Positions 2,563 to 62,309 of a DNA stretch of 64,000 nucleotides are shown piece after piece. The stretch is from contig NC_081390.1 of the NCBI RefSeq assembly GCF_030684315.1, positions 14,880,001 through 14,944,000 on the forward strand, read 5' to 3'. Both the position numbers and the translations under genes were made by a program. Origin of the DNA: Stegostoma tigrinum (Eukaryota). The stretch's first letter is position 1, and every line of letters starts with the position of its first letter. Under the pieces are notes generated by a model. That model did no database searches. It was not told the DNA's origin and saw only the letters and a list, made by a program, of their open reading frames with translations.

Positions 2563-2889
2563 AGAATTTTGAGCTACGTTTCTACATTGTTTCTTTTGCA
2601 TAAAATTTAGAGGCAGATGATTGAGTTTGTCTGTCTTTTCTTTTATGCTTACTATCCAAACTGAAAAAAAACAAAGAAATACTGTGGCTACAACAGCAGG
2701 TCAGAGGTTGGAAATGATGTGGCAAGCAAATCACCTCTTGACTCCCCAAAACCTGTCCACTATTGACAAGCACACGTCAGGAGTGTGATGGAATAGTCAC
2801 CACTTGCCTGGATGAGTGCAGCTCTAAGATAACAAAGCGTGAAGCTGGATGAACACAGCAGGCCAAGCAGCATCTCAGGAGCACAAAAG

Positions 2890-2921
2890 CTGACGTTTCG
2901 GGCCTAGACCCTTCATCAGAG
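2890..2921 (-). ncRNA. minimal type I hammerhead ribozyme motif (PLE)
   Basis: Minus strand: ct-CTGATGA-a-GGGTC-ta-GGCCC-GAAAC-GTC-ag; intact core and GUC triplet. Confidence 0.8.
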
Positions 2922-3328
2922 AGGGGGATGGGGAGAGGGTTCTGAAATAAATGGGGAGAGAGGAGGAGGCGGACCGAAGATGGATAGAGGAGAAGATAGG
3001 TGGAGAGGAGAGTATAGGTGAGGAGGTAGGGAGGTGATAGGTCAGTCCGGGGAGGATGGACAGGCCAAGGAGGCGGGATGAGGTTAGTAGGTGGGAAATG
3101 GAGGTGCGGCTTGAGGTGGGAGGGGGGATTCCCATCTCCCACCTCAAGCCGCACCTCCATTTCCCACCTACTAACCTCATCCGGCCTCCTTTACCTGTCT
3201 GTCCACCCCGGACTGACCTATCACCTCCCCACCTATACTCTCCTCTCCACCTATCTTCTCCTCTATCCATCTTTGGTTCGCCTCCCCCTCTCTCCCTATT
3301 TATTTCAGAACCCTCTCCCTATGCCCCT

Positions 3329-3360
3329 CTCTGATGAAGGATCTAGGCCCGAAACATCAG
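3329..3360 (+). ncRNA. minimal hammerhead motif (mutated copy)
   Basis: ct-CTGATGA-a-ggatc-ta-ggccc-GAAAC-ATC-ag; one stem II mismatch and CpG decay of the ACGT palindrome. Confidence 0.6.
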
Positions 3361-4324
3361 TTTTTGTGCTCCTGAGATGCTGCTTGGCCTGCTGTGTTCA
3401 TCCAGCTTCACGCTTTGTTATCTTGGATTCTCGAGCATCTGCAGTTCCCATTATCTCTGAGTGCAGCTCTAACAATGCTCAAGAAGCTTGTGCTATCTGA
3501 GACAAAGCTGCCTCTTGATTGGCACCCTATCCATATTTACGTTTAAACGTTTACACCCTCCAACCAAGAGTGCAGGACATGCCTGACAACACCATGACCT
3601 GCACAATTGCACCTCCTCCACCACACCCCCCCACCCCCGCCATAACAACGTACATATCATCCTGATTTGGAACTATGTTGTCATTCCTTCACTCCCAATA
3701 AGTTTAAAAATCCTTCCTTCCTAGCAGCACTGTGGATGTACACATTTCATCTTCTGATTGGTGTTGTAGGAGATCGTATCATTTCTTGAATGATTCTGCA
3801 GTAGACTATGTACATTTTAACAATTTTTAAATTACAGACTAACACTGCATAGCCATGGATCTGTACTCCTCGGTTAGATCTCTACTTAGCTTCCCCTTAA
3901 TTATTTGATGTTACATCTTATACCATGATGCTATAGGTTCATGCTGTTAAACCATTACATCACATCTATTGCTCCCCCCACCCCTACCACCAACCAAATC
4001 CATGTTCCAATTATTTACATTATTTTCCCAATTACTAATGATAGTTTAAGGTCATTAGCCTGACCCTCATGATCGGGCTAATCATTACTCCAAGTAATGA
4101 TCAGGTTTAAGCTGAAACCTGCTGTGAAGCAAAGCCTCTTGATTTTGTGAGAAATGAAGGGGTTCAGTTATTATTCTGTGCTTCTGTTTTGATATTATGA
4201 TTTGATCTTTTATCTTTCAAAATTGTTCCTTCTAGGAGCTAGGAGTTCGGTTTTAAAAAGGAAGGGTTTTAACATAGATCAAGTTAACAGCTTCCTTCTG
4301 GAGTATTCTACTAAAGAGGGAGAA

Positions 4325-10477: not shown

Positions 10478-10638
10478 GATCAAAAATCATACGACACCAG
10501 GTTATTGTCCAACAGGATTATTTGAAGGCACAAGCTTTCAGAGTCTGAGTCGTTGAATAAATCTGTCGGACTATAACCTGGCGTTGTGTGATTTTTGACC
10601 TAGTCCACCCCAGTCCAACACTGACACCTCCACATCAT
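10478..10638. mobile_element. fold-back mini-PLE, family 3
   Basis: caaaaatcatacgacaccaggttattgtccaacaggattatt is inverted against aataaatctgtcggactataacctggcgttgtgtgatttttg; right-hand tail ccccagtccaacactgacacctccacatc. Confidence 0.75.
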
Positions 10639-12900: not shown

Positions 12901-13338
12901 GAGTAGACATGGTGAAGAAACTAATATGTGGCTAAATGAGACATGAATTGCTACATTAAAATCATCTGAAACCATGAAAATCATGAAAAGCCTAATATTT
13001 CCAATATCAAGACTTACTATTGGGCAGTTCCATTCTGAATATTAATAGCCTAGAATCTAGTTTCCACCCTCAATGTTTGGCTGCCGTTTTAGGTTAGACC
13101 TTCCCAAAAATGCCATTGCATACTGTTTCCTTTGATAGAACTCAAAGATAAGTGAGTGAGTGCCCTGAAACCTAACAGCATAAATACTTATCGCAAAAAT
13201 CGAAGCTTTGAGACTGATTTGTTAGACCTGCGGTTATTTTTACATGTTTTGAAGTAGTTATTCAGCACATTGTTGAAGGTGCAGGCTGACGAGCTAGGGC
13301 TGTGAAAGAAGTGGCTCATAAGATAATTGATGCATTCA

Positions 13339-13818
13339 CTACATTGGACAAACAGGCAGAAAGCTAGCCACCAGGATGCATGAACATCAACTAGCCACAA
13401 AACGACATGACCCACTATCACGCGTATCCTTACATACAGATGAGGAAGGATACCACTTTGATTGGGACAACATATCCATCCTAGGACAAGCCAAACAGAG
13501 ACACCCACGAGAATTCCTAGAAGCATGGCATTCCAACCGGAACTCCATCAACAAACACATTGATTTGGAGCCAATCTACCATCCCCTGAGAAAAAGAACA
13601 GGAAATGACATCACCCATGCAGGAAATGACATCACCAACCCAAGGAAACCTAACCAGATAACTAGAAGGCGGGACATAACACCAGCACTTCGTCGGAGGC
13701 TCACTGATGATGTTACCTAGAATGGTGACGAAACGTCTGAAAACTAACCTTCCAGCTCAGCGAGCAAACTCACATCCAGAACCTCAACCTGAGCTACAAA
13801 TCTTCTCAAAACTCGCTA
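13339..13818 (+). mobile_element. 5'-truncated Penelope-like element, Poseidon-type (GIY-YIG C-terminus + terminal repeat), family 2
   Basis: Translates YIGQTGRKLATRMHEHQLATKRHD...FLEAWHS...SINKHIDLEPIY. TSD gcattca at 13332-13338 and 13819-13825. Internal 21-nt duplication caggaaatgacatcacc at 13599 and 13620. Confidence 0.88.
13701..13740 (+). ncRNA. minimal type I hammerhead ribozyme motif (family 2)
   Basis: tca-CTGATGA-t-GTTACC-tagaat-GGTGAC-GAAAC-GTC-tga: stem I tca/tga, 6-bp stem II, GUC triplet. Confidence 0.85.
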
Positions 13819-14667
13819 GCATTCATTTCAATTTTGCGAAATTCCCACAATTTGGGGAAGGTTCCATTGGAATGGAATGCAGTGATTGTAACTCCATTAT
13901 TCAAAACAAAGGACGAAGACAAAAAGCAGAAGACTGCAGGCCATTTGGCTTAACATCTGTCCTATGAAATACGTGAGAAGCTATAAATAAAGACATTGAA
14001 TCAGGGCACTGAGAAGAGTTCAAAGTAGAGCCAAATTGTTTTGTGAAATAACCAAACTATTGGAGGCTTTTCAGGAACTAATCGTGCCATAGTTGTATTA
14101 AACTCATACTTCCAGAAGACATTTGGTAAGGTGCCACAAGAAAATTTATTGCAAAAACGAAAAGCTGATAGGGTACTGGGTAACATATTGGCATGGGTGG
14201 AAGATTGACTATTTAACAGAAAGCATCCAATGGGGTTAAATGGCTTATTTTCTGGTTGGCAAGATGTAGAATGTCACAGAGACCATGGCTGGGGCCTCAA
14301 TTTTTTATAATTTATGTAAGTGACTTGGACGAAGATGTAGAAGGTATGATTACTATATTTGCAGATGGCACGAAGATAGAAAAATAGGTTATGAAAAATA
14401 CAAGGAAACTCCAAAGGGAAACAGGTTAAGTCAGTGGGCAAAGAACTGGTGAATGGAGTATGTTGTGGGAAAATATGTAATTGTCTATTTTGGCGTAAAG
14501 AATATTAAAGAAGTATACTATCTAACTGGTGAGAGATTGCAGAGCCCTCAGATGCAGAAAGATCTGGATGTTCCAGTGCATGAATTCCAAAATGTTTATA
14601 TGCAGACATTAGAAGAGTTAACAGCATGTATTTCTTTTTTGAGAAACAAACTGAAAACAGACTTAGT

Positions 14668-14815
14668 ATCAGAGATAATGGGAACTGCAGATGCTGGAGA
14701 ATCCAAGATAATAAAATGTGAGGCTGGATGAACACAGCAGGCCAAGCAGCATCTCAGGTGCTCCTGAGATGCTGCTTGGCCTGCTGTGTTCATCCAGCCT
14801 CACATTTTATTATCT
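14668..14815. mobile_element. fold-back mini-PLE, family 1 (no hammerhead retained)
   Basis: Tail on the left; arms aagataataaaatg...catctcagg / cctgagatg...cattttattatctt; flanking repeat tgaaaacagac at 14652-14662 and 14816-14826. Confidence 0.9.
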
Positions 14816-14840
14816 TGAAAACAGACATAGACAGGTTATG

Positions 14841-15073
14841 AGATAACAAGGTGTGGAGCTGGATGCACACAACAAGCCGAGCAGGAAGGCTGATGTTTCG
14901 TGCCGAGACCATTCTTCAGAAAATTCAGATTCTCTTCTTCAGATTTTCTGAAGAAGAGTCTAGGCCCGAAACATCAGCCTTACTGCTCCGCTGATGCTGC
15001 TTGGCCTGCTGTGTTCATCCAGCTCTACACCTTGTTATCTCAGATTCTCCAGCATCTGCAGTTCCTACTGTCT
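14841..15073. mobile_element. fold-back mini-PLE, family 1b, with hammerhead remnants on both strands
   Basis: TSD catagaca(g/a)gttatg at 14826-14840 and 15074-15088; CTGAAGA-a-gagtc-ta-ggccc-GAAAC-ATC at 14948-14977; tail on the right. Confidence 0.88.
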
Positions 15074-16032
15074 CATAGACAAGTTATGCTTCAGATATAT
15101 TGGCATTATTGAGATCACATCTGGAATATTATGTACGTTGTTGGTCTCCTTATTTAAAGAAGGTTGTAAGTTCTTTGGAAGTAGCTATAAGGAGATTTAC
15201 CAAACCAATAACTGGGATGGGTGGAAAAAGTTGGAAAGGCTAGTCTTGTATTCACTGGAGTTTAGAAAAGCACTTGGTGACTTGATTGAAACACATAAGA
15301 TTCTGAAGCATCTTAAGAGGGTGGATGTGGAAAAAATGTTTCTACTTGTGGGAAAATCTAGAACTAGGAGTCATCGTTTAAGGATTGTCCTTCAATATAA
15401 AGATAACAAGAATTTTTTTTCTTGCATCAGGTTTCCACTGTCTTTGGAAACAGTGGGAACGGTCTTTAAATATTTTCAAGCCAGTGCCATTAGATTCTTG
15501 ACTAGCAACAGTGTGAAAGTTAGAGGTTTGCACGACTGTGGAATTATTATATCAGCCATGATTTGATTGAAAGGTGGAGCAGGCTTGAGAGGCAGAGTGG
15601 TCTATATTTGCTCCTAACTCATTTGCTTTTATTTTCAAGCAGTTGACATGCATTCTTGGTTTGGACCCAAGTATAAACCACAAAAGACCACCATAATCAA
15701 ACAAAGTAAAAATCAGTGACACTGAGGAATTCATAATAATTCTATAACATTTATTTATTATATACCATTCAAACTGCATACATTTCAACCATAATAATGA
15801 ATTAACATTCATTTATTCAATAACCTTGGAAGGATATTCATTTCACCCAAAGTAATATAAATGCAAAATGAATTAACTACAATATTTTACATTGAAATCG
15901 TCCAAATCACAAACTCATTTGGTTGCAAACTGAATCACAATTCATCCCACTTGCCTTGATGGTATAATGTCATTTTTTTTAATCTTCTAAGTGCATATCA
16001 AAGAAACACAATTAGGTAAAAGTTAATACTGA

Positions 16033-16511
16033 ACCACATTGGAGAAAAGGTGAGCAGCCCAATGGTATCAATGTGGACTTCACCAGCTTCAAAATCTCCC
16101 CTTCCCCCACTGCATCCCAAAACCAGCCCAGTTCTTCCCCTCCACCCACTGCATCCCAAAACCAGTCCAGCCTCTCTCTGCCTCCCTAACCTGTTCTTCC
16201 TCTCACCCATCCATTCCTCCCACCCCAAGCCGCACCTCCATCTCCTACCTACTAACCTCATCCCACCTCCTTGACCTGTCCGTCTTCCCTGGACTGACCT
16301 ATCCCCTCCCTACCTCCCCACCTATACTCTCCTCTCCACCTATCTTCTTTTCTCTCCATCTTCAGTCCGCCTCCCCCTCTCTCCCTATTTATTCCAGAAC
16401 CCTCACCCCGTCCCCCTCTCTGATGAAGGGTCTAGGCCCGAAACGTTAGCTTTTGTGCTCCTGAGATGCTTCTGGGCCTGCTGTGTTCATCCAGCCTCAC
16501 ATTTTATTATC
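16033..16511 (+). mobile_element. 5'-truncated Neptune-type PLE 3' end, family 1
   Basis: Starts gcagcccaatggtatcaatgtggacttcacc (QPNGINVDFT), runs through the pyrimidine-rich UTR and hammerhead, and ends cacattttattatc. Confidence 0.9.
16418..16449 (+). ncRNA. minimal hammerhead motif
   Basis: ct-CTGATGA-a-GGGTC-ta-GGCCC-GAAAC-GTT-ag. Confidence 0.7.
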
Positions 16512-16948
16512 CTGCTGAGAGAGATGTGTTTTGAGGAAAGACAATAGAGGAGACAATTGAGACAACAATCTCCTGAGCTCAGATTTTGGTAGTATCAGCC
16601 AATCCTTCTTTGAGCTGAGCAGTGATATACCAGAGTCAGAGCAGGTCTGGAGACATTGAGTTGTTTGACAAGTATTGTTTATATGAATGGACTGGCATGA
16701 ATCTGTCATCATGTGATAGCAATGGGGACACATACAGGTAGACTCTCGGGGCAGAAAAAGCTGAAGAAGTGTGAAGTAACCTAAGTTCTGCATAGATGCA
16801 ATAAGTGGACTCATCCGAAACTATAGGTAGCAGAGACAAACTGCTTTTGCCATGAAAAGTGAGTTATGCAGAACGACATTGCCTGTGATTTGAGCAGACT
16901 ACTTGTACATTGGCTGGAACTATGATTATTCAAAATTACATAGACAGC

Positions 16949-17054
16949 TTTGATTTGATTTGATTTATGATTGTCACCAGAGCTGAGAAACAGTGAAAAA
17001 TATTGTTTTGCATGCTATTCAGACAAATCATATCTTATACAAGTACGCAGTGTG
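16949..17054 (-). mobile_element. Rex1/Babar-like LINE 3' tail
   Basis: (GATTT)n microsatellite tail then attgtcac...acagtgaaaa, similar to 49600-49700, which is attached to Rex1-type coding sequence. Confidence 0.55.
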
Positions 17055-17252
17055 AAGCTGGATGAACACAGCAGGCCAAGCAGCATCTCAGGAGCACAAA
17101 AGCTGACGTTTCGGACCTATCATCATACGAAGGGTCTAGGCCCGAAACGTCAGCTTTTGTGCTCCTGAGATGCTGCTTGGCCTGCTGTGTTCATCCAGCT
17201 CCACACAGTATTATCTCGGATTCTCCACCATCTGCAGTTCCCATTATCCCTG
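17055..17252. mobile_element. fold-back mini-PLE, family 1
   Basis: Inverted arms around a short spacer (tcatcatacg); TSD atacaagtac(g/a)cagtgtg at 17037-17054 and 17253-17270; tail on the right. Confidence 0.9.
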
Positions 17253-17539
17253 ATACAAGTACACAGTGTGTTTGTGACTTTCAACCTTTGAGTCTTGTGC
17301 ATTGGTAGACACGGCATTGCTTACCAACAGGTTAAATTCTTGTTTGAAAAACCTGAATATCTCAGTCTTGGTTCTTTGGATGATGCCCTTCCATGTCTGA
17401 TTACAATAAGAGAATATCAATATACAAAGCACGATGCATTAGAGATGTTGAAGGACAAATTAATGGCTGAGAAAGTTGACATTTTAAGTTTGCTTTCAAA
17501 AGTCAAGTTGTAGAGCCATAGAATAAGAGAGCACCCGCA

Positions 17540-18175: not shown

Positions 18176-18439
18176 GTGTGTGCACATACACAGTATTTTC
18201 CAAGATTTGTTTTGATACCCAAAGTTGAGCATGTTTGTGCTGTGCAGTAGCATCTGCATGCAGACCTCAGAAGCCCCTCCGTTTTATATTGTGCATTTTC
18301 TATGAGGCCTTCGTTTACAAACTTAATTGACAGAAAGTTCTTATTAATGTTTCATTTGACTTGTTCAGCATCCACTCTCCCCCTTTATACTACACTTCCT
18401 CCCCCACCCTCTGCACCCGCCCCGTCCCCACCATTGCTG

Positions 18440-20751: not shown

Positions 20752-20932
20752 AAAACTGCAAGAACAGCGCATGCAGTAAGTCAGAAACAAAAACAGACAT
20801 TGCTGGAAAAGCCCAGCAGCTCTGGCAGCGCCTGTGGACAGAAATTAGAGTTAATCAGAATTGTTTTGAGGAAGGGTCACTCAACCTGAAATATTAACTC
20901 TGATTTCACTCCACAGCTGCTGCTCGAGCTGA
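20752..20932. mobile_element. old fold-back mini-PLE, family 4
   Basis: ctgtggacagaaattagagttaat is inverted against attaactctgatttcactccacag; decayed hammerhead tgaggaagggtcactcaacctgaaat. Confidence 0.6.
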
Positions 20933-21063: not shown

Positions 21064-21547
21064 GTAAGCTTTCAAATCTAGGCCTTTTCTGGCTTGGTTT
21101 GGACTTTCTGTTCACGTGGTGTAGTCTGTGACTACTTAATGTAATTTATTACCAGTCGGCATGCCATAATGGATGCAAGATGAACTTTTAACAATGTGCG
21201 CATTGTATCATTCTTTGTTCTCGGGGAATAGATTGTAATGTGCTGAGCTTGATGCTGTCATGTGTTCCAAAGGAACACTATGACCATACTTGGATGTGTG
21301 CCATTTTGATGTGCAGTTGTTTGTTACACTATAGTGCAATGGGAACACCCTGCTGGTGAATTTCAGCAGTGTACCGTGATTTGATGCTATTGTGTATTTT
21401 CAGGTGCACAAAGTTCAAAATGTTTGTATGCTCTATCGAAATTTTTATTTTTGTTTAGACATAGTCGGACCTTAGGAGTGCAGCGTTGTTTTACATTCTA
21501 AATTACAATATATTCAAAATAAGGGAAGCAGGGAAGTTTAATAGCCA

Positions 21548-21726
21548 GGAGATAGCAAGAACAGCCAATGCTGAAGTCGGAGAAGAACACAGCAGGTCAG
21601 GCAGCATCAGAGGAACAAGCAAGTTGATGTTTTGGGTCAGGATTTTCTGTAGAAGGGTCCCAACCCCAAAACATCAGCTTTCCTGCTCCTCTGATGCTGC
21701 CTGACCTACTGTGATCCTGTTGTCTC
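21548..21726. mobile_element. fold-back mini-PLE, family 1b-like, older
   Basis: cacagcaggtcaggcagcatcagagga...gatgttttggg is inverted against ccccaaaacatc...cctctgatgctgcctgacctactgtg; TSD aagtttaatagcca (21534-21547) / aagtttaagaacca (21727-21740). Confidence 0.8.
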
Positions 21727-22317
21727 AAGTTTAAGAACCATTTTTTTTCAGTTTGATTGCCCACTGTTGTGCTTTCACTACTAGAGTGTCAACACTGTGA
21801 GGCAGATATTTACGTAGTTGCTCAGTATGTTTTGTGTTCGTCAGTGTAAAAGGAATACTCAGACATAGAATGTATAAGCATCTCTGTGATCTTCAAACCA
21901 TAGATCTTTCTCTTGTGTTTTATCTTGTGAGTTGGATCTTCTATAGGAGGCCAGGATTTTGAGTGATCCTGTATAAAGAGGGAAAGCTGTTAATACCATC
22001 CATCTTGCCTTTTTGTGTTGTGAGAAGCCCTGTGATTCCCAGCCTGATGAAGGGTCTTGTAACTTAAACTGGCTTTTGCTGATGCTGAAATACCCTGCTG
22101 GGAATTCCCACCAATTTTGGACTCTGACCAATAATCTTGTTAACCAATCAAATAGAAAAGGAGGAGGAAAGAACTTAAAGGGAAAAAAACTAAAATCCTA
22201 CGTTCAATTTCTTGCCTCATCTGTTAAATAAGCCCAATGCATTTTTGGTGACATGTTTTCACACTTGTTTTGATTCTCCGGTGTGCTGTGGTTTCCTGCT
22301 AATGTGATGACTCAAAA

Positions 22318-26165: not shown

Positions 26166-27345
26166 GATTATACCTTTGTGCACGCCTTTAGAATAAATTT
26201 CTTCCTGAAAGGAGCTGTATAAATATAAAGTTCTCAACTGTAACCTGGGTTCCTTCCAAATGTTCCTAGCTTGTATACTGGAAAGTCTGGTTTGTAAACC
26301 AGGTATTGCAGAAAACCATGCCCCTTTAAACTCATTACAGAAAGCTGTAAATGAGCTGAAGGATGAAACAATTTCAACTCACCATGACATAGCAGATCTA
26401 CTTTGCACTTACTATATTATAGAAAACTCCCAAATTCCAAGAAAATGTCAAATAAGACGTTTCTAAATACTATCCTGTGCTACCAGTTTCAGAGATTATT
26501 AAAGAGGTCAAACAAGTTAAGTTTCTGGACAGTTTCATGTGAGTGAAGGCTAATATCAGAGAGCTGGTGCCTGAGAGTCTGTAAGCGACAGTGTTTACAA
26601 AGAAGTAAATAGCAGACTCTGAATGATTGGGAGGGGTTGCTTGAAGCCATTTTAACAATGTTGTTACCAGAGTTTTACAAGTTTCCCAGCTGGTGTCTTT
26701 GTATTAGTGTGTAGGCAACAGAATAAGGTGCCTCTTTTGATGGAGGAGTACACAAGTGACCTCAAACACTGAGTTTATTGTACTCATGCTCGAATCTTGA
26801 GTTGGAATTCATTTTTGACACATCAGCAAGTACGTTTTATATCAGCTCCAAAAAAGAAGCTGGCATTAATACAAAGGAAGTGGAACCAGCAGCTGCCTTA
26901 ATGGTTTTCATGCTTCCTTGTGGAAAAAATATCTTAATAGTAATTTTCCGGTACTGTCTTCATCGCCTAGTTTAATAATTCCAATTAACAAATTGTTAGT
27001 AGTTCGCAACATCAATTGATGTGATAAATACTTCACCAGGGTGTGTTACTTAAGATTTCAATTGTATTTTATATGTCTGTTTATTTGGGGCATTCGGATT
27101 GCTAGCTGCTGACTGGTGGTACAATTGATAGCAACCTAAAAATAAACTACTTGCATTCATCAAGGTCAGCTGCTGGAAAATACTGGTTTAAAGAAAATGA
27201 TATTCCCAAGTTATCCGAGAGGATAAAGCTAATCCACAGACTGATGTCTGCATTACCAATAAGCATCTCCTTTTAACCTGTTCTTCCCATTGACTTTCCA
27301 TGCTTAATTCAACACTAAGCAGATGGAGTTTGTTGACTTTTTCCA

Positions 27346-27527
27346 AGATGTGGAGGTGCCGGTGTTGGACTGGGGTGGGCAAGGCCAGAAGTCACACGAT
27401 ACCAGGTTATAGTCGAACAGGTTTATTTCATCAGGTGAAGTCACTTTACCTGATGAAGGATCAGTACTCTGAAAGCTTGTGATTTCAAATAAACCTGTTG
27501 GATTACAACCTGCTGTCATGTGACTTC
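27346..27527. mobile_element. fold-back mini-PLE, family 3
   Basis: Left tail gatgtggaggtgccggtgttggactgggg; arms cagaagtcacac...caggtttattt / aaataaacctg...tgtgacttctg; TSD tga(c/a)tttttcca at 27334-27345 and 27528-27539. Confidence 0.85.
27447..27481 (+). ncRNA. minimal hammerhead motif, family 3 (decayed stem II)
   Basis: tac-CTGATGA-a-gga-tcagtac-tct-GAAA-GCTT-gtg; AGCT palindrome in place of ACGT. Confidence 0.6.
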
Positions 27528-27980
27528 TGAATTTTTCCATCACAATGATTGAAGATATTCGTATAGAGCTTTAGAATTTCCCTTGTCCCATTATTCTGAC
27601 AAGTTCTTCCTTTCCATCCCTATCTTGACATCACTCTTCAGCACCTCGGTATCTCATGGAGCTCTTCTTTAACTGTTATCACTTGAAGACTTGAATTCTT
27701 CCCGAACAAACTCTCACCACTCAAATACCTTGGCTTGCTTTTGATCTCACCAGCTCATGAAGTGCTGTTGTCAGAAGTGAACATTTTTGGAACAAATACC
27801 AAACCAAGGCACTTTGTTCGGGTGAAGGCCCCATTTGACTTATTCATGATTTTTTCAGCCTGTGGACCTTCAATGATCCATGCACATAGGCCCATCTGCC
27901 CTGGCACTGCCTTCAGAATTTCAACCTTTGTTTTATATTGACTTTTGCCATTCTTAATGTTTCCCTTCATAATTCTTGAT

Positions 27981-30484: not shown

Positions 30485-30547
30485 TCCACAGATTTTGGAT
30501 GTTGATTCTGATTTTGAATTGTTTTTTTAAGGAGATCCATATCTTTT

Positions 30548-30645
30548 GAGATAACAAGGTGCAGAGCTGGATGAACACAGCAGGCCAAGCAGCATCAGAG
30601 GAGCAGGAAAGCTGACATTTCGGGTTGAGACCCTTCTTCAGAAAG
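30548..30645 (-). mobile_element. PLE terminal fragment, family 1b, with hammerhead at 30611-30643
   Basis: Minus strand CTGAAGA-a-GGGT-ctca-ACCC-GAAAT-GTC-agc followed by gatgctgcttggcctgctgtgttcatccagc. Confidence 0.8.
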
Positions 30646-32785: not shown

Positions 32786-32832
32786 GAGAGAGAAGGGTAT
32801 TGTATGAATCCAATCCAATAAGTACATGTGTT

Positions 32833-33027
32833 TCAGAGATAGTCGGAACTGCAGATGCTGGAGAATCTGAGATAACATGGTGTAGAGCTGGATGAACACA
32901 GCAGGCCAAGCAGCATCAGAAGAGCAGGAAGGCTGACATTTCGGGCCTAGGTGCAAAACGTAAGCCTCCCTGCTCCTCTGATGCTGCTTGGCCTGCTGTG
33001 TTCATCCAGCTCTACACCGTGTTATCT
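32833..33027. mobile_element. fold-back mini-PLE, family 1b
   Basis: Tail on the left; inverted arms; TSD caataagt(a/g)catgtg at 32816-32830 and 33028-33042. Confidence 0.9.
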
Positions 33028-33703
33028 CAATAAGTGCATGTGCCTTCTTGTGAGCAATGCCAGTTGATAGCTTCATGCTAGTATTGCTAACTTTAGTTTT
33101 GGAGTCATTTGTCAGATAATTTTTCACGTCCTGAAGCGTAATTTATGCCCAAAGTTCCCTGACCTTGAGAGGTGTTCAGGATGATGTTTGTGGGCTGTTC
33201 GACTGTGAAGAGAACCTATGGAATAACAAAAATGAAAGATTTATCATGAATCAGGGGAGTATGTGATACCTTGCATTTTTTCGTGCCTTCATTCTGTCTT
33301 GAATAGCCATTCGTCCTGGAGTGGAGACCTGATTATATTCTACAATAAAGGGGAGTACCCAGGCAGATGAAACTTCTCCCAGACAATGTTATAACTTGGT
33401 GGATGCGTGATAGCTTGACCTAGAAGAAACAACAAGTAGTTTTACTCTTCTGCTAGTACTCCTAGTACACACTGTTCTTTTGGAAAGGCAAACATAGACA
33501 GTAGGCTACGTTAACTAGAATACTTCAGATTTGCCTGACAGCCAGTTATGTTTTATGTTCATTCATTGAAACATGTGGCATGATGATAGTGAGTGCATAT
33601 TTATTTATTCCCCTGGCTCCTAATGGGCAGCTGTTTGTTATAGGACACCACGTTCTTTCCTTACAAATGTGTCTTCGCTATGGCAATCAGACTGATTGGC
33701 ACT

Positions 33704-33784
33704 CGGATAACCAAGTGTGGTGCTGGATGAACACAGCAGGCCAAGCAGCATCTTAGGATCACAAAAGCTGATGTTTCCGGCCTA
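33704..33784 (-). mobile_element. PLE terminal fragment, family 1
   Basis: gctggatgaacacagcaggccaagcagcatcttaggatcacaaaagctgatgtttccggccta. Confidence 0.8.
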
Positions 33785-35116: not shown

Positions 35117-35523
35117 TCACCCTTTGTAACTGCTTGAGAAAGTGGTTAAAAAGCCAATGGACCAGGAAAAAGGGTACCAAAGCAAAGGATTTACAATGAT
35201 TTTTTTTCTAAATAAGTGGTGTTTCTGCATCCAGTAGAGTATCATGTTGGATTTTGGGCAGTAGAGATTTACAAGGATGGCTCCAAGGACAAGGGTATCA
35301 GTTGTGTGCAAATATTGAAGAAGATGAACTTCTGAGAGAATAAACGATTGAGAGAAGATTTGGCAGAAATGTTCAAGATATTGAGGAAAATAGACAGATT
35401 TAGTTATGTAGAAACTGTTTTCTTTGGCAGAAGGATTGACAACCAGAGAGCACATGCTTAAGATAATAAAATGTGAGGCTGAATGAACACAGCAGGCCAA
35501 GCAGCATCTCAGGAGCACAAAAG

Positions 35524-35555
35524 CTGATGTTTCGGGCCTAGACCCTTCATCAGAG
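35524..35555 (-). ncRNA. minimal hammerhead motif
   Basis: Minus strand ct-CTGATGA-a-GGGTC-ta-GGCCC-GAAAC-ATC-ag. Confidence 0.7.
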
Positions 35556-35777
35556 AGGGGGATGGGGAGAGTGAACTGGAATAAATAGGGAGAGAGGGGG
35601 AGGCGGACCGAAGATGGAGAGAAAAGAAGATAGGTGGAGAGAGTATAGGTGGGGAGGTAGGGAGGGGATAGGTCAGTCCAGGGAAGACGGACAGGTCAAG
35701 GAGGTGGGATGAGGTTAGTAGGTAGGTGGGGGTGCGGCTTGGGGTGGGAGGAAGGGATGGGTGAGAAGAAGAACCGG

Positions 35778-37037
35778 TTAGGGAGGCAGAGACAGGTTGG
35801 ACTGGTTTTGGGATGCAGTGGGTGGGGGGGAAGAGCTGGGCTGGTTGTGTGGTGCAGTGGGGGGAGGGGACGAACTGGGCTGGTTTAGGGATGCAGTAGG
35901 GGAAGGGGAGATTTTGAAACTGGTGAAGTCCACATTGATACCATATGGCTGCAGGGTTCCCAGGCGGAATATGAGTTGCTGTTCCTGCAACCTTCGGGTG
36001 GCATCATTGTGGCAGTGCAGGAGGCCCATGATGGACATGTCATCTAGAGAATGGGAGGGGGAGTGGAAATGGTTTGCGACTGGGAGGTGCAGTTGTTTGT
36101 TGCGAACTGAGAAGAGGTGTTCTGCAAAGCGGTCCCCAAGCCTCCGCTTGGTTTCCCCAATGTAGAGGAAGCCGCACCGGGTACAGTGGATGCAGTATAC
36201 CACATTGGCAGATGTGCAGGTGAACCTCTGCTTAATGTGGAATGTCATCTTGGGGCCTGGGATAGGGGTGAGGGAGGAGGTGTGGGGACAAGTGTAGCAT
36301 TTCCTGCGGTTGCAGGGGAAGGTGCCGGGTGTGGTGGGGTTGGAGGGCAGTGTGGAGCGAACAAGGGAGTCACGGAGAGAGTGGTCTCTCTGGAAAGCAG
36401 ACAGGGGAGGGGATGGAAAAATGTCTTGGGTGGTGGGGTCGGATTGTAAATGGCGGAAGTGTCGGAGGATGATGCGTTGAATCCGGAGGTTGGTAGGGTG
36501 GTGTGTGAGAACGAGGGGGATCCTCTTAGGACGGTTGTGGCGGGGGCGGGGTGTGAGGGATGTGTTGCGGGAAATACGGGAGACGCGGTCAAGGGCGTTC
36601 TCGATCACTGTGGGGGGAAAGTTGCGGTCCTTAAAGAACTTGGACATCTGGGATGTGCGGGAGTGGAATGTCTTATCGTGGGAGCAGATGCGGCGGAGGC
36701 GGAGGAATTGGGAATAGGGGATGGAATTTTTGCAGGAGGGTGGTTGGGAGGAGGTGTATTCTAGGTAGCTGTGGGAGTCGGTGGGCTTGAAATGGACATC
36801 AATTACAAGCTGGTTGCCTGAGATGGAGACTGAGAGGTCCAGGAAGGTGAGGGATGTGCTGGAGATGGCCCAGGTGAACTGAAGGTTGGGGTGGAAGGTG
36901 TTGGTGAAGTGGATGAACTGTTCGAGCTCCTCTGGGGAGCAAGAGGCGGCGCCGATACAGTCATCAATGTACCGGTGGAAGAGGTGGGGTTTGGGGCCTG
37001 TGTAGGTGCGGAAGAGGGACTGTTCCACGTAACCTAC
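35778..37037 (-). CDS. PLE polyprotein fragment: RT C-terminal half + Cys linker + GIY-YIG endonuclease (5'-truncated)
   Basis: Uninterrupted ~420 codons: RYIDD catalytic box, LTFLDL, FKPTDSHSYLEYTS, CNRRKCYTC linker, VYCIHCTRCGFLYIGETKRRLGDRFAEH, GINVDF. Confidence 0.9.
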   Translation of the reverse strand, partial: VGYVEQSLFRTYTGPKPHLFHRYIDDCIGAASCSPEELEQFIHFTNTFHPNLQFTWAISSTSLTFLDLSVSISGNQLVIDVHFKPTDSHSYLEYTSSQPPSCKNSIPYSQFLRLRRICSHDKTFHSRTSQMSKFFKDRNFPPTVIENALDRVSRISRNTSLTPRPRHNRPKRIPLVLTHHPTNLRIQRIILRHFRHLQSDPTTQDIFPSPPLSAFQRDHSLRDSLVRSTLPSNPTTPGTFPCNRRKCYTCPHTSSLTPIPGPKMTFHIKQRFTCTSANVVYCIHCTRCGFLYIGETKRRLGDRFAEHLFSVRNKQLHLPVANHFHSPSHSLDDMSIMGLLHCHNDATRRLQEQQLIFRLGTLQPYGINVDFTSFKISPSPTASLNQPSSSPPPTAPHNQPSSSPPPTASQNQSNLSLPP

Positions 37038-40000
37038 CTCCTGAGATGCTGCTTGGCCTGCTGTGTTCATCCAGCCTCACATTTTATTATCTTGGAATTC
37101 TCCAGCATCTGCAGTTCCCATTATCTCTGAGCACATGCTTAAGATGGTTTGCAAAATAAAAATATCTGGAGGCAAAAGGGTAGACTTTATACACAGCAAG
37201 TGGCTGGAATCTGACATTGTGATAGAGGCAAATTCAATCAGGGTTTGTAAAATGGAATTGGGTGAGAACTTGAAAAGGAAAGGTTAGCAGGCAGAAGGAG
37301 GAAGGGTGTGGGAGAGTTACTATTATACGCGTCGTGGACACAGGTTACCTTCTATGCTGTAACCATTCCGTGACTCTTTAATTATGAAATATACTTGTGT
37401 TTTGTAAAACTGACAAAGCAATCGTAAAGATAGGTGTTTCAGTAATAATTCTCGGTGAAACAATTTTAAAATACCTAAATGCTGTGACAAGTAACTAAGG
37501 AAAGCAGATAAAACAAAGCTCTGCAATTAGATTCATCCAATTCATTATGCCCAGACAACTGAATTTTGGGCTCTAAATATTTGATTGAATGTATAAATTT
37601 AAATTGGGATATGTTGCAGAAGAATTTGAAGGATTGTATCGTGTAGTGGTGTTACGTTATACTATATTCAGACCAGAATCTAAACAAGTTTAAATAATAA
37701 AGGGTAATTATTTTGGCATCACAACAGGATATCCAATTCTGTTTTTTGAAAATATTCTTTCCATAGTTTGCATCTGATCATCAACAAATCTTGCAGTAGT
37801 TTACTGGACCACAATGTTAGGGAGTGTCGGTACAGTTTTTTTTCCATCCTCCCTTGCATTAATAAGATTCAAAGTTAAGAACAGTGTATTCTTAATGCAT
37901 GCCACAAACACACTGTTGCTCACTGTCACATTCTGAGCATCTTTTGGTGTCATCAAAGTTGAAGCTAATTAACTTTGTAGTTACTTTTATTACTTTTTTT
38001 GGTTTTACTGTTGGTTTTATCTTATCAAAACTCTTCCGAGGATAAAATTGTTTTGTATTTTGTATTGAATCTACTACATAATAAAATCTGAGTGTTTTGG
38101 GGGTAACGTAAAGAACACAATGTATTTCCCTCTTACAGCCAAGGTTTTTTTTGGCCTTTCAACATTTTTCTCCCTGGCAATATTCAAAAGAAATACAGTA
38201 GTCATAACATGATACTCACACTATATAATTACCTTAAGACCTAAAAGTGTAGTTATGTTCAAAAGACTTTCCCATTTTAGAATGAATAGTGCATTCAGTG
38301 CCAGTTTTCCTGTAAACATCTTCAAAATTATGGGTTTGTATAAAAATAAGAACGCAAGAAATATAGAGTCTTGAAACACGCTTTTGTGGTTCTATAGTAG
38401 TGCATTATAATGGCTGTAGTAATTTTCAAAAAGGCAAATTTGCAGTTTTTTAACTGATGCAGCTATGAACTGCAATAGTCTGGAAAGGAGGGTTGTTGCC
38501 CTTTTATTTCTGAAATGAAAACATCCATAAGGAAGGACGGTTTAATTACATTATAATTTGGAGGCTGTTAGCAGGTCAGAGCAGCTAAATTAAGTGATTT
38601 AAATATTAATTATGAATGAAATAAGTTGTTTAAGATATATTTAATAGCACTTGATAAAGCTGCAGCTGGGGCAATCCAGCAATAGAAAAATGCTAAGAAC
38701 AAAATTATCATAAACTATTAGCTTGTTTGCAAAGAATATTATGCTAACCTTTTAGCACTAACACACCCTACAATTAACATATCATAGGAGCTGCTTGCAA
38801 GCAAAGTCATGCAAATTGCATTTCTCAGATAAGGAGTATTCACAAAAAAATCAAAGAGAGGGTTGGTACGGTGTTCAAAGGCCATCAATCCTTGTGGTTG
38901 GGATTAGGAGTTGTAATGATTCTCCTATCAGTTTTAGCTTCTAATTAGATCACTTCCTTCAACCATTACAATAGATGAAGCATTGATTTCTGTGTTTTAT
39001 TGTGAAAGCCCTTTAATTTTAGGGCTGAGAATATGAATAGCCTAAGTAAAAGGACTAGATGAAGCATTGTTGATTGTCTTGTTTAAAACTGCTTTGTTGC
39101 TTGGAATGAAAGCAAGGAGAGTTGGGAATGGGATTGTGGGAAATTCAAGAATTATCATTCGCCTGATGCATACCCTCATCTCAAAATCAAAGTATTATCT
39201 GACTTTAAAAATTGTGTATTTTGTTCTGTATGTGCATTCCATTTTCTAACTGAAATGATACTGGAATTGTTTTAAAGTGTAAATATTAAAATAGTGTGAA
39301 ATCTCTACAATTTGAATCTTTATTTGGCTTCACAATTTGTTGGATGGCAAAATTTAAAATACTTTTTAAAAACTTTAAACAAATTATTGTTGAACAGATA
39401 GATGAGTTGATGAACACTATTAATCCCGTTTGTTTGGGATGGTCCAAATATTTCTCTGAATTCTGTTCCTGACAACAGGTATTGCAAGACTAAATTTGAA
39501 CTAAATAAAAGGCCTATAATTGGAATAATGCCCTTAAGAAAATAAAAGTTGAAGAATCACAGCATTGTAGCTGTCCTCTGGTAGAAGCAGGCACAGTATA
39601 CAATTTTGAGACTGTAACTGTTCCACTTGATAGCCCTTACACAACAATCAGTGACCCACATAATCTTTGGGGTTGAGTTGAGTTCATTTCTTCATGAAAC
39701 ACTACTATAGTACTTTGTCCTTTGATGCTATACTTGAGATAAGTAACCATTTCCCCTCCCTTTGCCCATCCCCCACCTCTGTTTATAATTTATATAGATT
39801 ATGGAAGAGGAAACTTCCTTCTCAGTTATTAAAGTTCTGAATGTTATGGAAGTAAGAGCTGATTTTCAAAGCATCTGTTAGGAAATCTCCTCTGAAACAC
39901 ATTGTTTCATTTCTTTTCCTGGTTTAAGTGGCACCAACACACATGTTCAATTCATTTTGAAAAGATAGCCCATGTTTATACGTCAGAATGTTCAGCCTAC

Positions 40001-49599: not shown

Positions 49600-50403
49600 T
49601 GATTTGATTTTGATTTGAATTGATTTCTTGTAATGGCATGTACCTAAGTACAATGAAAAGTTTTATTTTGCAAGTACAAGCAGATCATAACAAACAAGGA
49701 TGTACAGATCATAGAGATAGTAGGAACTGCCGATGCTAGAGAATCTGAGATAACAAGGTATAGAGCTGGATGAACACAACAGGCCAAGCAGCATCAGAGG
49801 AGCAGGAAAGCTGATGTTTTGGGTCTGGACTCTTCTTCTGAAGAAGGGTCCAAACCCAAAACATCAGCTTTCCTCCTCCTCTGATGCTGCTTGGCCTGCT
49901 GTGTTCATCCAGCTCCACAACTTACTATCGTGCACAGATCATAGGTTGCTCAGACAGAGCGAGGCATAAAACGTCACGGCTGCACAGGAGGTACCCAAAG
50001 CAAGATCAACATTATCTGAAGTTATTGGACTGGCAAATAGACTTCCTAACAGCAGGGTAGAAGCTGTTCTTGAACCTGTTGGTGCATGTGTTTATGCTTC
50101 TGCCTGATGGTAGAGGTTGGAAGAGTGCATTAATGGAGCAGGAGGGATCTTTGATGTTGGCAGACTTTCCGCGACTGTGCGTACAACTTTGTGCAGTTTC
50201 TTACCTTGTTGGGCAGAGCAGTTGCCGTACCAGGTCGTTATTCACTCAGAATGCCTTCCATGCTGCATCGATAAAAGTTGGTGAGGATCCTTATGGACAT
50301 GCAAAATTTCCTAAGCCACCTGAGGAAGAAGAGGTGCCATTGTGCTTTCTTAACTGTCGCATCTACATGGGAGGTCCAGGACAGATTGTTGGTTATCATC
50401 ACT
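49600..50403 (-). mobile_element. Rex1/Babar LINE 3' fragment, interrupted by a mini-PLE
   Basis: Minus strand TVKKAQWHLFFLRWLRKFCMSIRILTNFYRC...WYGNCS (Rex1 KKAQQRLxFLR motif); (GATTT)-like tail at 49600-49625. Confidence 0.8.
49715..49930. mobile_element. fold-back mini-PLE, family 1b
   Basis: Tail on the left; arms meet at ctcttc|ttctgaagaaggg (decayed hammerhead); TSD tg(t/c)acagatcatag at 49701-49714 and 49931-49944. Confidence 0.88.
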
Positions 50404-56307: not shown

Positions 56308-56321
56308 TCTCTCTCTTTCCT

Positions 56322-56354: not shown

Positions 56355-56355
<1 letters not shown>

Positions 56356-56892: not shown

Positions 56893-56953
56893 GCATTGAG
56901 TACAAAAAGGAGGTGGTTTTGGCAAACCTATTATTAGCTAAGGTTTGCTTAGA

Positions 56954-57590
56954 CAAACAACTGCACCTCCCAGTCGCAAACCATTTCCACTCCCCCTCCC
57001 ATTCTCTTGATGACATGTCCATCATGGGCCTCCTGCACTGCCACAATGATGCCACCCGAAGGTTGCAGGAACAGCAACTCATATTCCGCCTGGGAACCCT
57101 GCAGCCATATGGTATCAATGTGGACTTCACCAGTTTCAAAATCTCCCCTTCCCCCACTGCATCCCTAAACCAGCCCAGTTCATCCCCTCCCCCCACTGCA
57201 CCACACAACCAGCCCAGCTCTTCCCCCCCACCCACTGCATCCCAAAACCAGTCCAACCTGTCTCTGCCTCCCTAACCGGTTCTTCCTCTCACCCATCCCT
57301 TCCTCCCACCCCAAGCCGCACCCCCAGCTACCTACTAACCTCATCCCACCTCCTTGACCTGCCCGTCTTCCCTGGACTGACCTATCCCCTCCCTACCTCC
57401 CCACCTATACTCTCTCCACCTATCTTCTTTACTCTCCATCTTCGGTCCGCCTCCCCCTCTCTCCCTATTTATTCCAGTTCCCTCTCCCCATCCCCCTCTC
57501 TGATGAAGGGTCTAGGCCCGAAACGTCAGCTTTTGTGCTCCTGAGATGCTGCTTGGCCTGCTGTGTTCATCCAGCCTCACATTTTATTAT
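56954..57590 (+). mobile_element. young 5'-truncated Neptune-type PLE 3' end, family 1
   Basis: KQLHLPVANHFHSPSH...LSLPP is identical in translation to the end of the 35778 ORF; flanking repeat tattattagctaa at 56929-56941 and 57585-57597. Confidence 0.95.
57498..57529 (+). ncRNA. minimal hammerhead ribozyme motif, intact
   Basis: ct-CTGATGA-a-GGGTC-ta-GGCCC-GAAAC-GTC-ag. Confidence 0.8.
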
Positions 57591-59490: not shown

Positions 59491-59494
59491 ACTG

Positions 59495-59850
59495 ACATCC
59501 TTGCTGCCATCCTGTGAACAGAGGGTATTTTGTTCATTTAACCTTGCTCCTTTGATGGCCCTAATAGCTTTAAAGATATTTAACAATAATCAGTGTACTA
59601 TTGGATTTCTCGGGTTTTCTCTTCCCACCACATGTATTTCATCTTCTAGATTTACTTTTTAGCATCTGCCTTGAGCTGTTGGAATGTTGGCTTCTTGACT
59701 TGTGGCTTTGGGTTGTTCTACCAGGCAATGAAGGCTACTCATTTTTATTCTAGGAGGCCACTCATTACACTGTAATTTTGATCAAGCCAGTTGTGGTGCT
59801 GACAGTCCTCAAACTTGAAAGACCTGGGCACTGTATCATGTTACAGCTGA
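59495..59850 (-). mobile_element. RTE-like LINE remnant
   Basis: Minus strand cagcaccacaactggcttgatcaaaat = QHHNWLDQN (compare RTE KHQDWFDEN). Confidence 0.4.
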
Positions 59851-60661
59851 CTTTATTTGACTTCTCTGTTGTAGAATTGAGTTACATGAAAGAAAATCAT
59901 CCACACTGGTTTTGAGCAGTTTGAAGACTGTTTTGCAGCTGGGATGCTGAACATCTTTATGTTTTGCAATATCTTGATGTTAGCTTCTGTTCAGTTGATG
60001 AACTATCCAGCAGATTGGAGAATATAGACATTATTTTCAGTTTCCACACAAATGATAAAAATATTCCAGCTGGTACCACAATTTGACCTAGGATGTCTGG
60101 AATTTTAGAGCCCATTTAATTCAAATGAGAATATTCATACAAATTTCGAATTACATAAAAATGCCATCGCCGTCCCAACCGTACTCCCAAGTATATATAA
60201 ATCCTGATGATGCCATAGGTAACTACATTGGAGACAGCAATTGTATCTCAACAGTTGAGAAAATAAAATATATATCCAGCATTTCCAGTTTATGAAAGTC
60301 CTCAATTCCTGAGAAATAGTTTTCTTTTAAGTGAGAAACGTCAATAAGAAAGTTAGATTATTGTTTAAAAGACCAGCAGAAAGTCTGTTTTTCCTTTTTG
60401 ACTTCGAAGTATCACAAGACTTCAATCAATGCATTTGTCAAAATTGGTTTTCTCCTTGAGCAAGTGGGTTCAATGTTTTTCTATCTTTATCACTTCTAGC
60501 TAAAAGATGGAGAAATAATTGGAAAAGGAATATCAGCCAAATTTCAACAACGCCTATCAATTTTCTAAATTTAATGTTTTTTATTTCGTAAGTACTACTT
60601 TCACTCCTGCAGGCTGAGGGTGTTGATTTCCTTGGGATGTCAGTTTCGCAGCTGTTGCACT

Positions 60662-62125
60662 GAGCATAGGAACATAGGAGTTCAGAGCAAGAGTAGGCCC
60701 TTTGTCCCTTCAAGGCTGCTCTGCCATTAATAAACTCATGGATGATCAGTTTCTGGTGTGGTTTTTTCTCTGTCAGTCCCCATCCCTGCCAAAGCCCCAC
60801 CCCAAAATCCTTGATTCTCTTGTCTGTGAAAGATCTATCAAAATTAGCTTTGACTAAATTTGAAGACCCAGCATCTGCTACCTTCTGGAGAAGGGAATTT
60901 CACTTTCTAACAGCCTTCTATGAGAATAAGAATCTCCTTATCTCAGTGTTAAACTATGTCTCTTAGTTTTAGTCTCCCCTGCAAAAGGAAGCATCATCTT
61001 GGTACTCTCCCTACCAGGTCCCCCAAGGTCTGAAATGTTTCGATAAAAGCACCTCTTGTTGTTCTAAATTCTAGGATCTAGCTTCTAAGATCTAGCGGTT
61101 CAACCTCACATTATAAGGTAAGCCCTTCTTCCCAGGACTAAGTGGAGTGAGCTGTCCCTGAACTGTTTCCAAACAATTATACTTGTTTTCAATAAGGACA
61201 CAGTAATCCAGATGTGGTGTTATGGAACAGACCAAACCCCTCAAAATGTAAGATGATAGTCAAACACTAATTTTCCCTTGTTTTAATGGTAAGTGTAATC
61301 TGGCTGCAATTCTTGAAAGGCTTGAAACAAAACACACTTTATTCATGCACTAAATAAAAATACATGAATTAGCTTAACTGTAACTCTATTGAAATACTCA
61401 ACAAAGTTTTATATTTGTGTATATATATATAGCTGTATAATAATATCACGTAAAAACACCTTTGGCAAAGGCAAATTCAGCAAAATAGATTGTCTCGTAT
61501 GCAATTCTAGCAGCAGGAGGAGAATCCCAGCTTTTAGCTATGAGAGAGAGGGGAATAAGAGCGGCCACATTCAACTTCAAGACCCTGAAAGCTAAAAGTA
61601 CAATTTCTGGTGCAAGGGAGCTTGATCCCACCCATTCGGGTTGCTTCGATTGTTCCAACTTTAAAATAAAAACCAAGCTTCACAAACTGTTTATTAGCTT
61701 TGGAGCAGACTGCCTCTGTTTCAAGTTTTAATCATTAAAAAAAATCCGGGACAAAATACACTTCTTAAAGCCATTGTATCATCACAGTAGTATCAATAGT
61801 GCCCTTTATACCTTCCACACAACATTCTTTCCTTTTTCTTCCATTTCCCTTGCTGTAAATGGCAATGTTCCATTTGCCCTCACCAATCACTTGTTTTACC
61901 TGCATCCTAATTTTTTTACATTTCATGTATCAGGACGCTCAGATTTCTCTATACCACTGAGTCTTGCAATCTCACGCCATTTAAATAATACACTGTTTTT
62001 TCCATTTTTCCTGCCAAATTGGATAAATTCATATGTACTCATGTAAACACTCCATCTGTCACTGAACCCCTTTGCAGATTCTCCACCTCTTCTATCTTTC
62101 CTATCTTGGTGCCATCAACAAATTT
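60662..62125 (-). mobile_element. old CR1 3' part (60662-61217 + 61787-62125) split by a solo LTR
   Basis: Tail cataggaacataggag; cagtaatccagatgtgg; RT end gtgccatcaacaaattt (KFVDGT). Confidence 0.75.
61218..61786 (-). mobile_element. solo LTR (TG...CA)
   Basis: Begins TGTTATG and ends ATCACA; 4-bp TSD gtgg/gtag; the host CR1 resumes on both sides; tttatt at ~61338. Confidence 0.7.
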
Positions 62126-62261
62126 CAACGGGTTTATTTGAAATTACAAGTTATAATTTGAAATTCCGAAAGCTTGTGATTTCAAATAAACCTGTTGAAC
62201 TGTAACCTGGTGTTGTGTGACTTTTGACCTTGTGCATCCCAGTCCAACACTGGTACCTCCA
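62126..62261. mobile_element. fold-back mini-PLE, family 3
   Basis: caacgggtttatttgaaattacaag is inverted against cttgtgatttcaaataaacctgttg; tail on the right; perfect TSD catcaacaaattt at 62113-62125 and 62262-62274. Confidence 0.88.
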
Positions 62262-62309
62262 CATCAACAAATTTGGTTACCATAGTTTTGTACTCTTTTC
62301 CAGATCATT

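Follow-up and report, generated by a model that had tools for sequence, protein, structure and literature searches.

Fold-back insertions in the window

The stretch of DNA analysed here (the window) is 64,000 nt long and corresponds to positions 14,880,001 to 14,944,000 of NC_081390.1 in the 3.2-Gb genome of the shark Stegostoma tigrinum; locations in it are given as window positions. It carries fold-back insertions in which two inverted copies (arms) of the terminus of a Penelope-like element (PLE) face each other and only one arm is extended by a short tail. A preliminary description had attributed this architecture to eleven sites, and we found inverted arms at all eleven, each with one arm lengthened by a tail (Table 1). 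At 21548 the tail is degenerate, and at 62126 about 45 nt are missing from the tail-less arm. The site at 35465, formerly listed as a mere element end, is a whole fold-back of 1.67 kb, made of a long tail-less arm that bears an open reading frame (ORF) and a tailed arm of 94 nt. The 55-nt arms of the insertion at 14652..14826 are 100% complementary, and its tail reaches 7 nt deeper into the 5' untranslated region (UTR), to +41. The ends of the fold-back at 32816..33042 were found in a related species too.

Table 1. Fold-backs, single arms, ORF and predicted hammerhead cores in the window. TSD, target-site duplication; RT, reverse transcriptase; negative positions are counted from the border between terminal repeat and tail.
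Feature	Position	Strand	Remarks
Family-2 fold-back, older, absent from the preliminary description	855..1015	.	TSD not above chance
Family-1 fold-back	2813..3472	.	Inside older host repeat; TSD 15 bp exact, 2813-2827 and 3458-3472; tail-less arm 2828-3123 (-); tailed arm 3136-3424 (+); tail 3425-3458
Family-3 fold-back	10480..10638	.	Tail right; TSD not above chance
Family-1 fold-back, young	14652..14826	.	Tail left; TSD 14652-14662 / 14816-14826 (11 bp exact; 15 with 1 mismatch)
Family-1 (older subfamily) fold-back	14826..15088	.	Tail right; TSD 15 bp, 1 mismatch; tailed arm start -99
Single tail-less family-1 arm	16054..16514	+	Absent in related species
Family-1 fold-back	17037..17270	.	Tail right; TSD 17037-17054 / 17253-17270 (18 bp, 1 mismatch); related species without insertion
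Family-2 fold-back, older, absent from the preliminary description	20763..20931	.	TSD not above chance
Old family-1-related fold-back	21534..21740	.	Degenerate tail left; marginal TSD (14 bp, 2 mismatches, score 9)
Family-3 fold-back	27345..27544	.	Tail left; tailed arm with internal deletion; no TSD found
Single tail-less arm	30547..30645	-	Start -97
Family-1 (older subfamily) fold-back	32816..33042	.	Tail left; TSD 15 bp, 1 mismatch; both arms stop at -82
Single tail-less arm	33706..33784	-	Absent in related species
Large family-1 fold-back	35448..37145	.	Tail-less arm 35460-37037 (-); tailed arm 37038-37130 (+); TSD 17 bp exact
5'-truncated ORF	35778..37037	-	C-terminal RT, CX4CxxC linker, GIY-YIG endonuclease
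Family-1 (older subfamily) fold-back	49701..49944	.	Tail left; TSD 14 bp, 1 mismatch; both arms stop near -96
Single tail-less arm, youngest subfamily	56953..57590	+	98% identical to 35463-36100
Family-3 fold-back	62113..62274	.	Tail right; left arm short; TSD 13 bp exact
Predicted minimal hammerhead core	2896..2919	-	Motif match
Predicted core	3331-3354	+	Motif match
Predicted core	14896-14919	-	Motif match
Predicted core	14948-14971	+	Motif match
Predicted core	16420-16443	+	Motif match
Predicted core	27450-27474	+	Motif match
Predicted core	30618-30641	-	Motif match
Predicted core	35530-35553	-	Motif match
Predicted core	57500-57523	+	Motif match

The arms are end pieces of Penelope-like elements

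The fold-backs are end pieces of endonuclease-bearing (EN+), Neptune-type PLE insertions, with an inverted pseudo-long terminal repeat (pLTR) and a one-sided tail. Several marks of EN+ PLEs were found, namely pLTRs formed by partial tandems, an adjacent inverted 5'-truncated copy and a tail of 30-40 bp. The truncated ORF of the window is 98-99% identical to the 99 other genomic copies scored. The RT-endonuclease fragment has 343,766 first-look candidates in the genome and, since all 100 copies scored were 98-100% identical, family 1 appears to be very young and is probably active.

A whole copy (locus L011) has an 1100-aa ORF in which RVT_1 (E 3e-5) is followed by GIY-YIG (E 0.004), both weaker than the Pfam curated cut-off. 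The DKG motif is present, as is the CCHH motif, whose two cysteines stand between GIY and YIG (VVYCIHCTRCGFLYIGET and downstream histidines). The CX2-5CxxC finger of the linker that joins RT to endonuclease reads CNRRKCYTC in family 1 and, in decayed form, CHGNLCKTC in family 3; the linker fits both Neptune and Nematis, and the label Neptune rests on our assumption that this is the vertebrate clade. In its accessible text, PMC8557442 gives the linker as a feature of Neptune and Nematis and also supplies the definition of the CCHH motif for EN+ PLEs. The Penelope/Poseidon clade lacks the linker finger and was therefore ruled out for families 1 and 3. The RT and endonuclease encoded by long family-3 arms are decayed, share 23-40% identity with those of family 1 and have the same kind of linker. 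At L011 (4023-9511) the intact ORF stands in a partial tandem together with an inverted 1.6-kb arm; the tail lies 62 nt upstream of the ATG, and the N-terminal region contains ADADGTPPT repeats. In both L011 and L012, reading on from the upstream pLTR into the 5' UTR, the next 34 nt are the tail.

With the border between pLTR and tail as position 0, the family-1 hammerhead core starts at -94. A minimal core, recognised by pattern match and predicted to cleave, is present in the pLTR of all families. Families 1 and 3, which had been thought to share no obvious sequence, both carry this core (CTGANGA...GAAA), while the rule of one tail per insertion does hold in the two of them as had been claimed. 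An Rfam scan gave no match at gathering score and no hammerhead family, microRNA matches being sub-threshold only; Pfam returned 0 families at E 0.001 for the window's truncated ORF, and a PDB sequence search with the 1100-aa ORF gave 0 hits.

One tail per insertion

A genome sample of 1.464 Mb, composed of 13 regions at round coordinates, one of them around the window, held 342 family-1 termini and 98 fold-backs, or 93 after removal of five segmental duplicates; five of these pairs had an unclassifiable end, leaving 88. A 100-kb region without termini was kept in the denominator (C3:50.0-50.1 Mb, L071-L080); it is a satellite-like array of about 90-bp units. At C14:30.0-30.1 Mb (L171-L180) a tandem segmental repeat of about 24 kb triples several insertions.

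The outer ends were bimodal, lying either where the pLTR ends (about -5 to +2) or 31-37 nt past it. Exactly one tail was present in 79 of the 88 classifiable family-1 fold-backs, where independent choice predicts 50% (P ~2e-15), and in 19 of 21 fold-backs at loci selected by their ORF. Family-3 fold-backs were one-tailed in 3/3 cases in the sample and 9/10 at tail-selected loci, and those of family 2 in 14/18 (three of them duplicates, with a crudely placed border). Another PLE, presumably of the Poseidon kind, had two fold-backs in the sample, both one-tailed and with longer arms. The window itself contains, at 13331-13815, the 3' end of this unrelated PLE, with its own hammerhead-like core and a 38-nt tail. 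Fold-backs with tails on both outer arms, or on the inverted arm and the internal tandem copy, were seen at L215 and L011.

Among the 93 family-1 fold-backs, 65 were shorter than 300 bp and the common class measured 190-240 bp; overall, sizes ran from 130 bp to 6.7 kb, and the ORF-selected loci showed the same layout with arms of up to 3.1 and 3.6 kb. The size series is continuous, and the mini-insertions are thus the short end of ordinary insertions, not miniature inverted-repeat transposable elements (MITEs) or short interspersed elements (SINEs). A rough extrapolation from the sample gives about 2 x 10^5 family-1 fold-backs genome-wide, and those below 300 bp make up about 0.9% of the sampled DNA (13,009/1,464,000 bp). 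The large non-coding class that had been announced is therefore abundant, but it is not a separate one. For annotation, short fold-backs could be misfiled as MITEs or microRNA hairpins.

Target-site duplications and empty sites

Flanking repeats at the eleven named sites were scored against a random-position null with a 99th percentile of 8.0. At nine of them the TSD was above chance (Table 1); at 10478 and 27346, old family-3 insertions with scores of 7 and 5, the repeats did not exceed the null. In the sample, a TSD flanked 64 of the 79 one-tailed family-1 fold-backs and 25 of 29 young ones, compared with 9 of 1000 controls. Exact TSDs were 14-17 bp long in 21 of 24 examined. The TSDs are AT-rich (67% AT versus 59%), and a base logo of 24 showed this bias only, with no clear motif. 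For family 2 the count was 0/20, obtained with a reference sequence that lacks the tail end.

Paralogues of the host repeat around 2828 that are not interrupted hold the target once. At 17055, one 1736-nt contig from the related species runs from 16518-17046 into 17267-17756, the two stretches being separated by 3 letters; it lacks a net 217 nt, the TSD copies being 216 apart, and a second related-species run breaks at the same two positions. An empty site still holding both TSD copies, which had been singled out as evidence against the preliminary reading, was thus not what we saw, as this one holds a single copy. For 10478, 14668, 14841 and 35465 no bridging contig was present among the related-species contigs listed. 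The single arms 16054-16517 and 33702-33784 are replaced in the related species by 14 and 7 letters with no TSD, and are probably sites of small target deletions. The related species also has about 370 additional bases at 33994-34001.

Common variants and a preferred inner end

The two arms of an insertion match in length class (59 short/short, 15 long/long and 5 mixed pairs; P 2e-11). Inner ends no more than 2 nt apart were found in 22 of 59 short pairs (shuffle mean 10.2), and among the 28 long pairs 5 had theirs within 15 nt (shuffle mean 0.36); equal inner ends also occurred at arbitrary places (-242/-240, -291/-292, -2453/-2446, -2667/-2682). In 14 young long fold-backs the arms agreed at 190 of 199 polymorphic sites, compared with 65% between insertions, and of 27 variants seen twice, 21 had both occurrences in a single insertion, one per arm (chance, 1 in 27). 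Over the sample, agreement reached 658 of 751 polymorphic sites against 54%.

The inner ends also pile up at -93 to -101, just 5' of the hammerhead core, in 58 of 158 arms, with few at -102 to -150. The same interval holds the inner ends of 41 of 146 single copies, some of which are perhaps alignment limits; families 2 and 3 have a similar pile-up a few nt 5' of their core, and in the related species 30644 is where 550-736 contigs per run stop, matching it. We then scored junctions with a pattern that demands three non-templated bases before the position, at -98 and at the controls -74 and -52, and obtained 810 junctions at -98 and 49 at each control. The base adjoining the arm at -98 was G in 75, T in 14 and A in 11 of the first 100 of the 810 (hand tally; background G 33%), whereas at -74 and -52 it was G in 7/49 and 14/49 (21/98 in total, P 2e-14, Fisher). 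When only G and A are compared, the ratios are 75:11 and 21:20 (P 4e-5). Twenty non-templated -98 loci were read; they comprised 7 fold-backs and 13 single copies, with unrelated upstream sequence and differing haplotypes, and the G-starting copies span four haplotypes. In L1, copying of the cap leaves an extra 5' G (PMC11702581, accessible text), and the genomic G signature suggests that the -98 end is the capped 5' end of the RNA. Arms ending at the predicted hammerhead cut (-66) numbered 6 in the sample, not above neighbouring positions; genome-wide there were 204, compared with 35-43 comparable matches at two controls and 966 at a third with a flawed pattern.

A model of paired priming and its alternatives

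We propose that both arms are copied from one RNA by paired priming, with run-off to a capped start and head-to-head joining, a reading to which we assign a probability of about 0.68. Each insertion of the RT/GIY-YIG element would be one event, in which the two cut strands each prime a cDNA on the same RNA. Nicks about 13-16 bp apart would leave two 3' ends, and a dimer may hold one RNA with one subunit at each start site, which within this model yields the one-sided tail. From start sites near the transcript 5' end, both cDNAs would run off the capped end about 98 nt upstream, before the hammerhead core, and produce the 190-240 bp class and the extra G; arms would come out shorter after earlier stops or on broken RNA, and reach kilobases if priming took place further down a tandem transcript. 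The two cDNA 3' ends would join bluntly, through palindromic microhomology of 2-10 nt, or with a few added bases. The purified protein of the Poseidon element PAc requires sequence downstream of the tail (PMC11167929, accessible text), so that the start sites nearest the transcript 5' end would give copies of 100-135 nt. The fold-back stubs are probably dead ends. A stricter form of the model, in which paired priming by a dimer on one capped RNA at two fixed sites is obligatory and most often yields a 200-bp palindrome centred on the transcription start before the hammerhead, has in our view slightly better than even odds. If it is true, some 10^5 genomic stubs are a fossil 5' RACE (rapid amplification of cDNA ends) and a read-out of integration geometry.

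Several points weigh against this reading. Nine of the 88 fold-backs break the one-tail rule (7 without a tail, 2 with both), as does L215, and one blunt junction occurs in 888 exact genomic copies. In L020 and L029, two of the 14 long young fold-backs, the arms differ at 4 shared polymorphic sites each and have a two-template look, and the common variants of the others could be explained by gene conversion between arms or by assembly polishing. In the older subfamily the G test gave A 53, G 31 and T 16 in the first 100, a result confounded by the opposite arm. The junction counts vary widely among control positions (49, 49, 204 and 966, the last with the flawed pattern), and the size of the -98 excess is therefore poorly measured. 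Finally, the start site in vitro was alike on both strands (PMC11167929, accessible text), a bulk result by which pairing is neither shown nor excluded.

The best surviving alternative, which we consider unlikely, is that the two strands are primed on two RNAs from a single source locus, or at two pLTR copies within one tandem RNA, and that -98 is an RT stall at a C-rich tract or RNA structure instead of a transcription start. Shared variants do indicate the same source and not the same molecule, L020 and L029 fit two templates, and a C-rich tract has its edge at the pile-up; however, neither equal inner ends at arbitrary places nor a G that precedes -98 but not the control sites would be expected.

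Two priming events, on the two target strands as first proposed, are supported by arm lengths, by the TSDs of tail-less single arms and by the form of the junctions. The tailed arm was the longer in 19 fold-backs and the tail-less arm in 27, the two being within 5 nt in 33 (n=79). As either arm can be longer and tail-less single arms carry TSDs of their own, the tail-less end appears to be a separate priming site. Blunt and zero-loop palindromic junctions were seen, which argues for two 3' ends meeting and not for a hairpin turn. The fold-backs were thus very probably built at integration by two priming events. One priming followed by self-priming, in which the first cDNA or, as proposed in PMC3846280, an antisense template folds back and is copied and the tail arises by endonuclease resolution (PMC8557442; accessible text of both), would need no second priming to account for identical arms, common variants and symmetric ends, and would also account for the short palindromes at many junctions. 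Yet a self-folding cDNA cannot gain a tail missing from the first strand; where the tail-less arm is the longer (27 of 79, among them 35460-37130), part of the tailed arm has no counterpart in the first strand. There is no space for a hairpin loop at zero-loop and blunt junctions, and in vitro the RT starts at either end of the tail on sense RNA (PMC11167929, accessible text). With the longer tail-less arms and the TSDs of single copies, these facts make self-priming improbable.

Much less probable still, and already largely refuted, is a non-autonomous MITE- or SINE-like family whose whole hairpin is copied from a few masters, one of them with a templated G start. The 888 copies would suit it, as would a junction string of the 14668 type in 35 of the first 100 of 966 matches (hand tally) and the two thirds or so of fold-backs below 300 bp. 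However, 77 distinct junction strings were found among the 79 one-tailed fold-backs, and many spacers occur among the first 50 of 5363 junctions at the hammerhead core. The 15 loci read among the 888 span at least five terminal haplotypes, with arms matching within each copy and varied outer ends, so that this junction is a recurrent end point rather than a propagated unit; descent as a unit from masters, as in SINEs, is not what these identical-junction copies show. Nor is there the uniform unit with symmetric DNA-transposon terminal inverted repeats of a MITE: the ends are asymmetric, the termini are RT-linked, the TSDs are unlike those of a DNA transposon, sizes continue unbroken to 6.7 kb, and G-starting copies occur in more than one haplotype. 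The large group of identical junctions that the preliminary description had named as contrary evidence does literally exist (888), but it spans several subfamilies and haplotypes. The inversion point does vary, as had been claimed, but is strongly clustered 93-101 nt inside; given this pile-up and the 888 identical junctions, its variability makes a weak argument. Construction at integration, and not copying as a unit, is nevertheless upheld by arms of which either can be longer, by the diversity of junctions and by the empty site with one TSD.

Two independent insertions, a later rearrangement or an assembly error that brought the arms together would draw on the density of the family (342 termini in 1.46 Mb) but are refuted by the clean empty site and the TSD control, and one TSD round both arms, abutting arms and the one-tail rule also contradict them.

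Other features of the window

RT fragments of long interspersed elements (LINEs), which we take to be CR1-like, lie at 40199-41398, 18360-19469 and 28797-29192, with RVT_1 at 40202-40909 (E 8e-23). An exon-like stretch with a Pro/Thr-rich frame is found at 22401-22805.

Comparison with known systems

The layout is already described for PLEs; it is ordinary as an element and useful as a record of mechanism. In the accessible text of PMC3846280, Pen2a_Av of Adineta is accompanied by an adjacent inverted pLTR and carries at one end a tail of 30-40 bp, and the general insertion scheme of EN+ PLEs is given in the legend of Fig. 2 of PMC8557442. The shark insertions resemble both in their head-to-head inverted pLTR, single tailed arm, TSD, partial tandems, 5' truncation and junction palindromes. 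Unlike Pen2a_Av, most copies here are ORF-less, measure 190-240 bp, exist in roughly 10^5 copies and have a preferred turning place, and their TSDs are of 14-17 bp compared with 8-10 bp in Adineta (PMC3846280). These two papers, in the parts accessible, explain the inversion by self-priming with an antisense template or by resolution through the endonuclease, and not by paired priming, and the origin of inverted one-tailed PLE insertions is called unresolved in the accessible text of PMC8557442 and PMC11167929.

The purified protein of Poseidon PAc from Anolis carolinensis nicks and extends both strands, two RNA start sites bound its tail, and a dimer is predicted (PMC11167929, accessible text). 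Common to PAc and the present families are the two RT start sites bounding the tail, a template reaching into the 5' UTR, the pLTR hammerhead, AT-rich targets and, on the model above, extension of both strands; PAc is, however, a Poseidon element, whereas families 1 and 3 have the Neptune/Nematis linker. The main text of PMC11167929 does not treat inverted insertions, start-site pairing or transcription start. In Schistosoma PLEs, hammerhead motif pairs on opposite strands 100-700 bp apart are mentioned only, their geometry being undefined in the accessible text (PMC4209133). The cores predicted here by motif are like the metazoan PLE hammerheads of that paper in being minimal, with a short palindromic helix III.

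Our literature search found no paper on cap-derived G, a mapped start or paired priming in PLEs, or on short shark Penelope palindromes; subscription papers, Repbase and Dfam were outside its reach, so that a prior description may exist. The counts yield three sharp predictions, namely that start sites pair in each event, that both arms come from one RNA, and that a capped start lies just 5' of the hammerhead.

MITEs and SINEs are short, non-coding, high-copy, TSD-flanked and hairpin-forming. The fold-backs differ from them in having no fixed unit, asymmetric ends, a palindrome over their whole length and continuity with ORF-bearing copies. In L1 twin priming, two priming events on two target strands lead to an inversion within one TSD. 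The shark insertions would share with L1 the two priming events, the inversion within one TSD and the copied-cap G; but whereas each L1 cDNA derives from a different part of the RNA, the two cDNAs here come from the same part, which yields a palindrome, with fixed internal starts and no poly(A).

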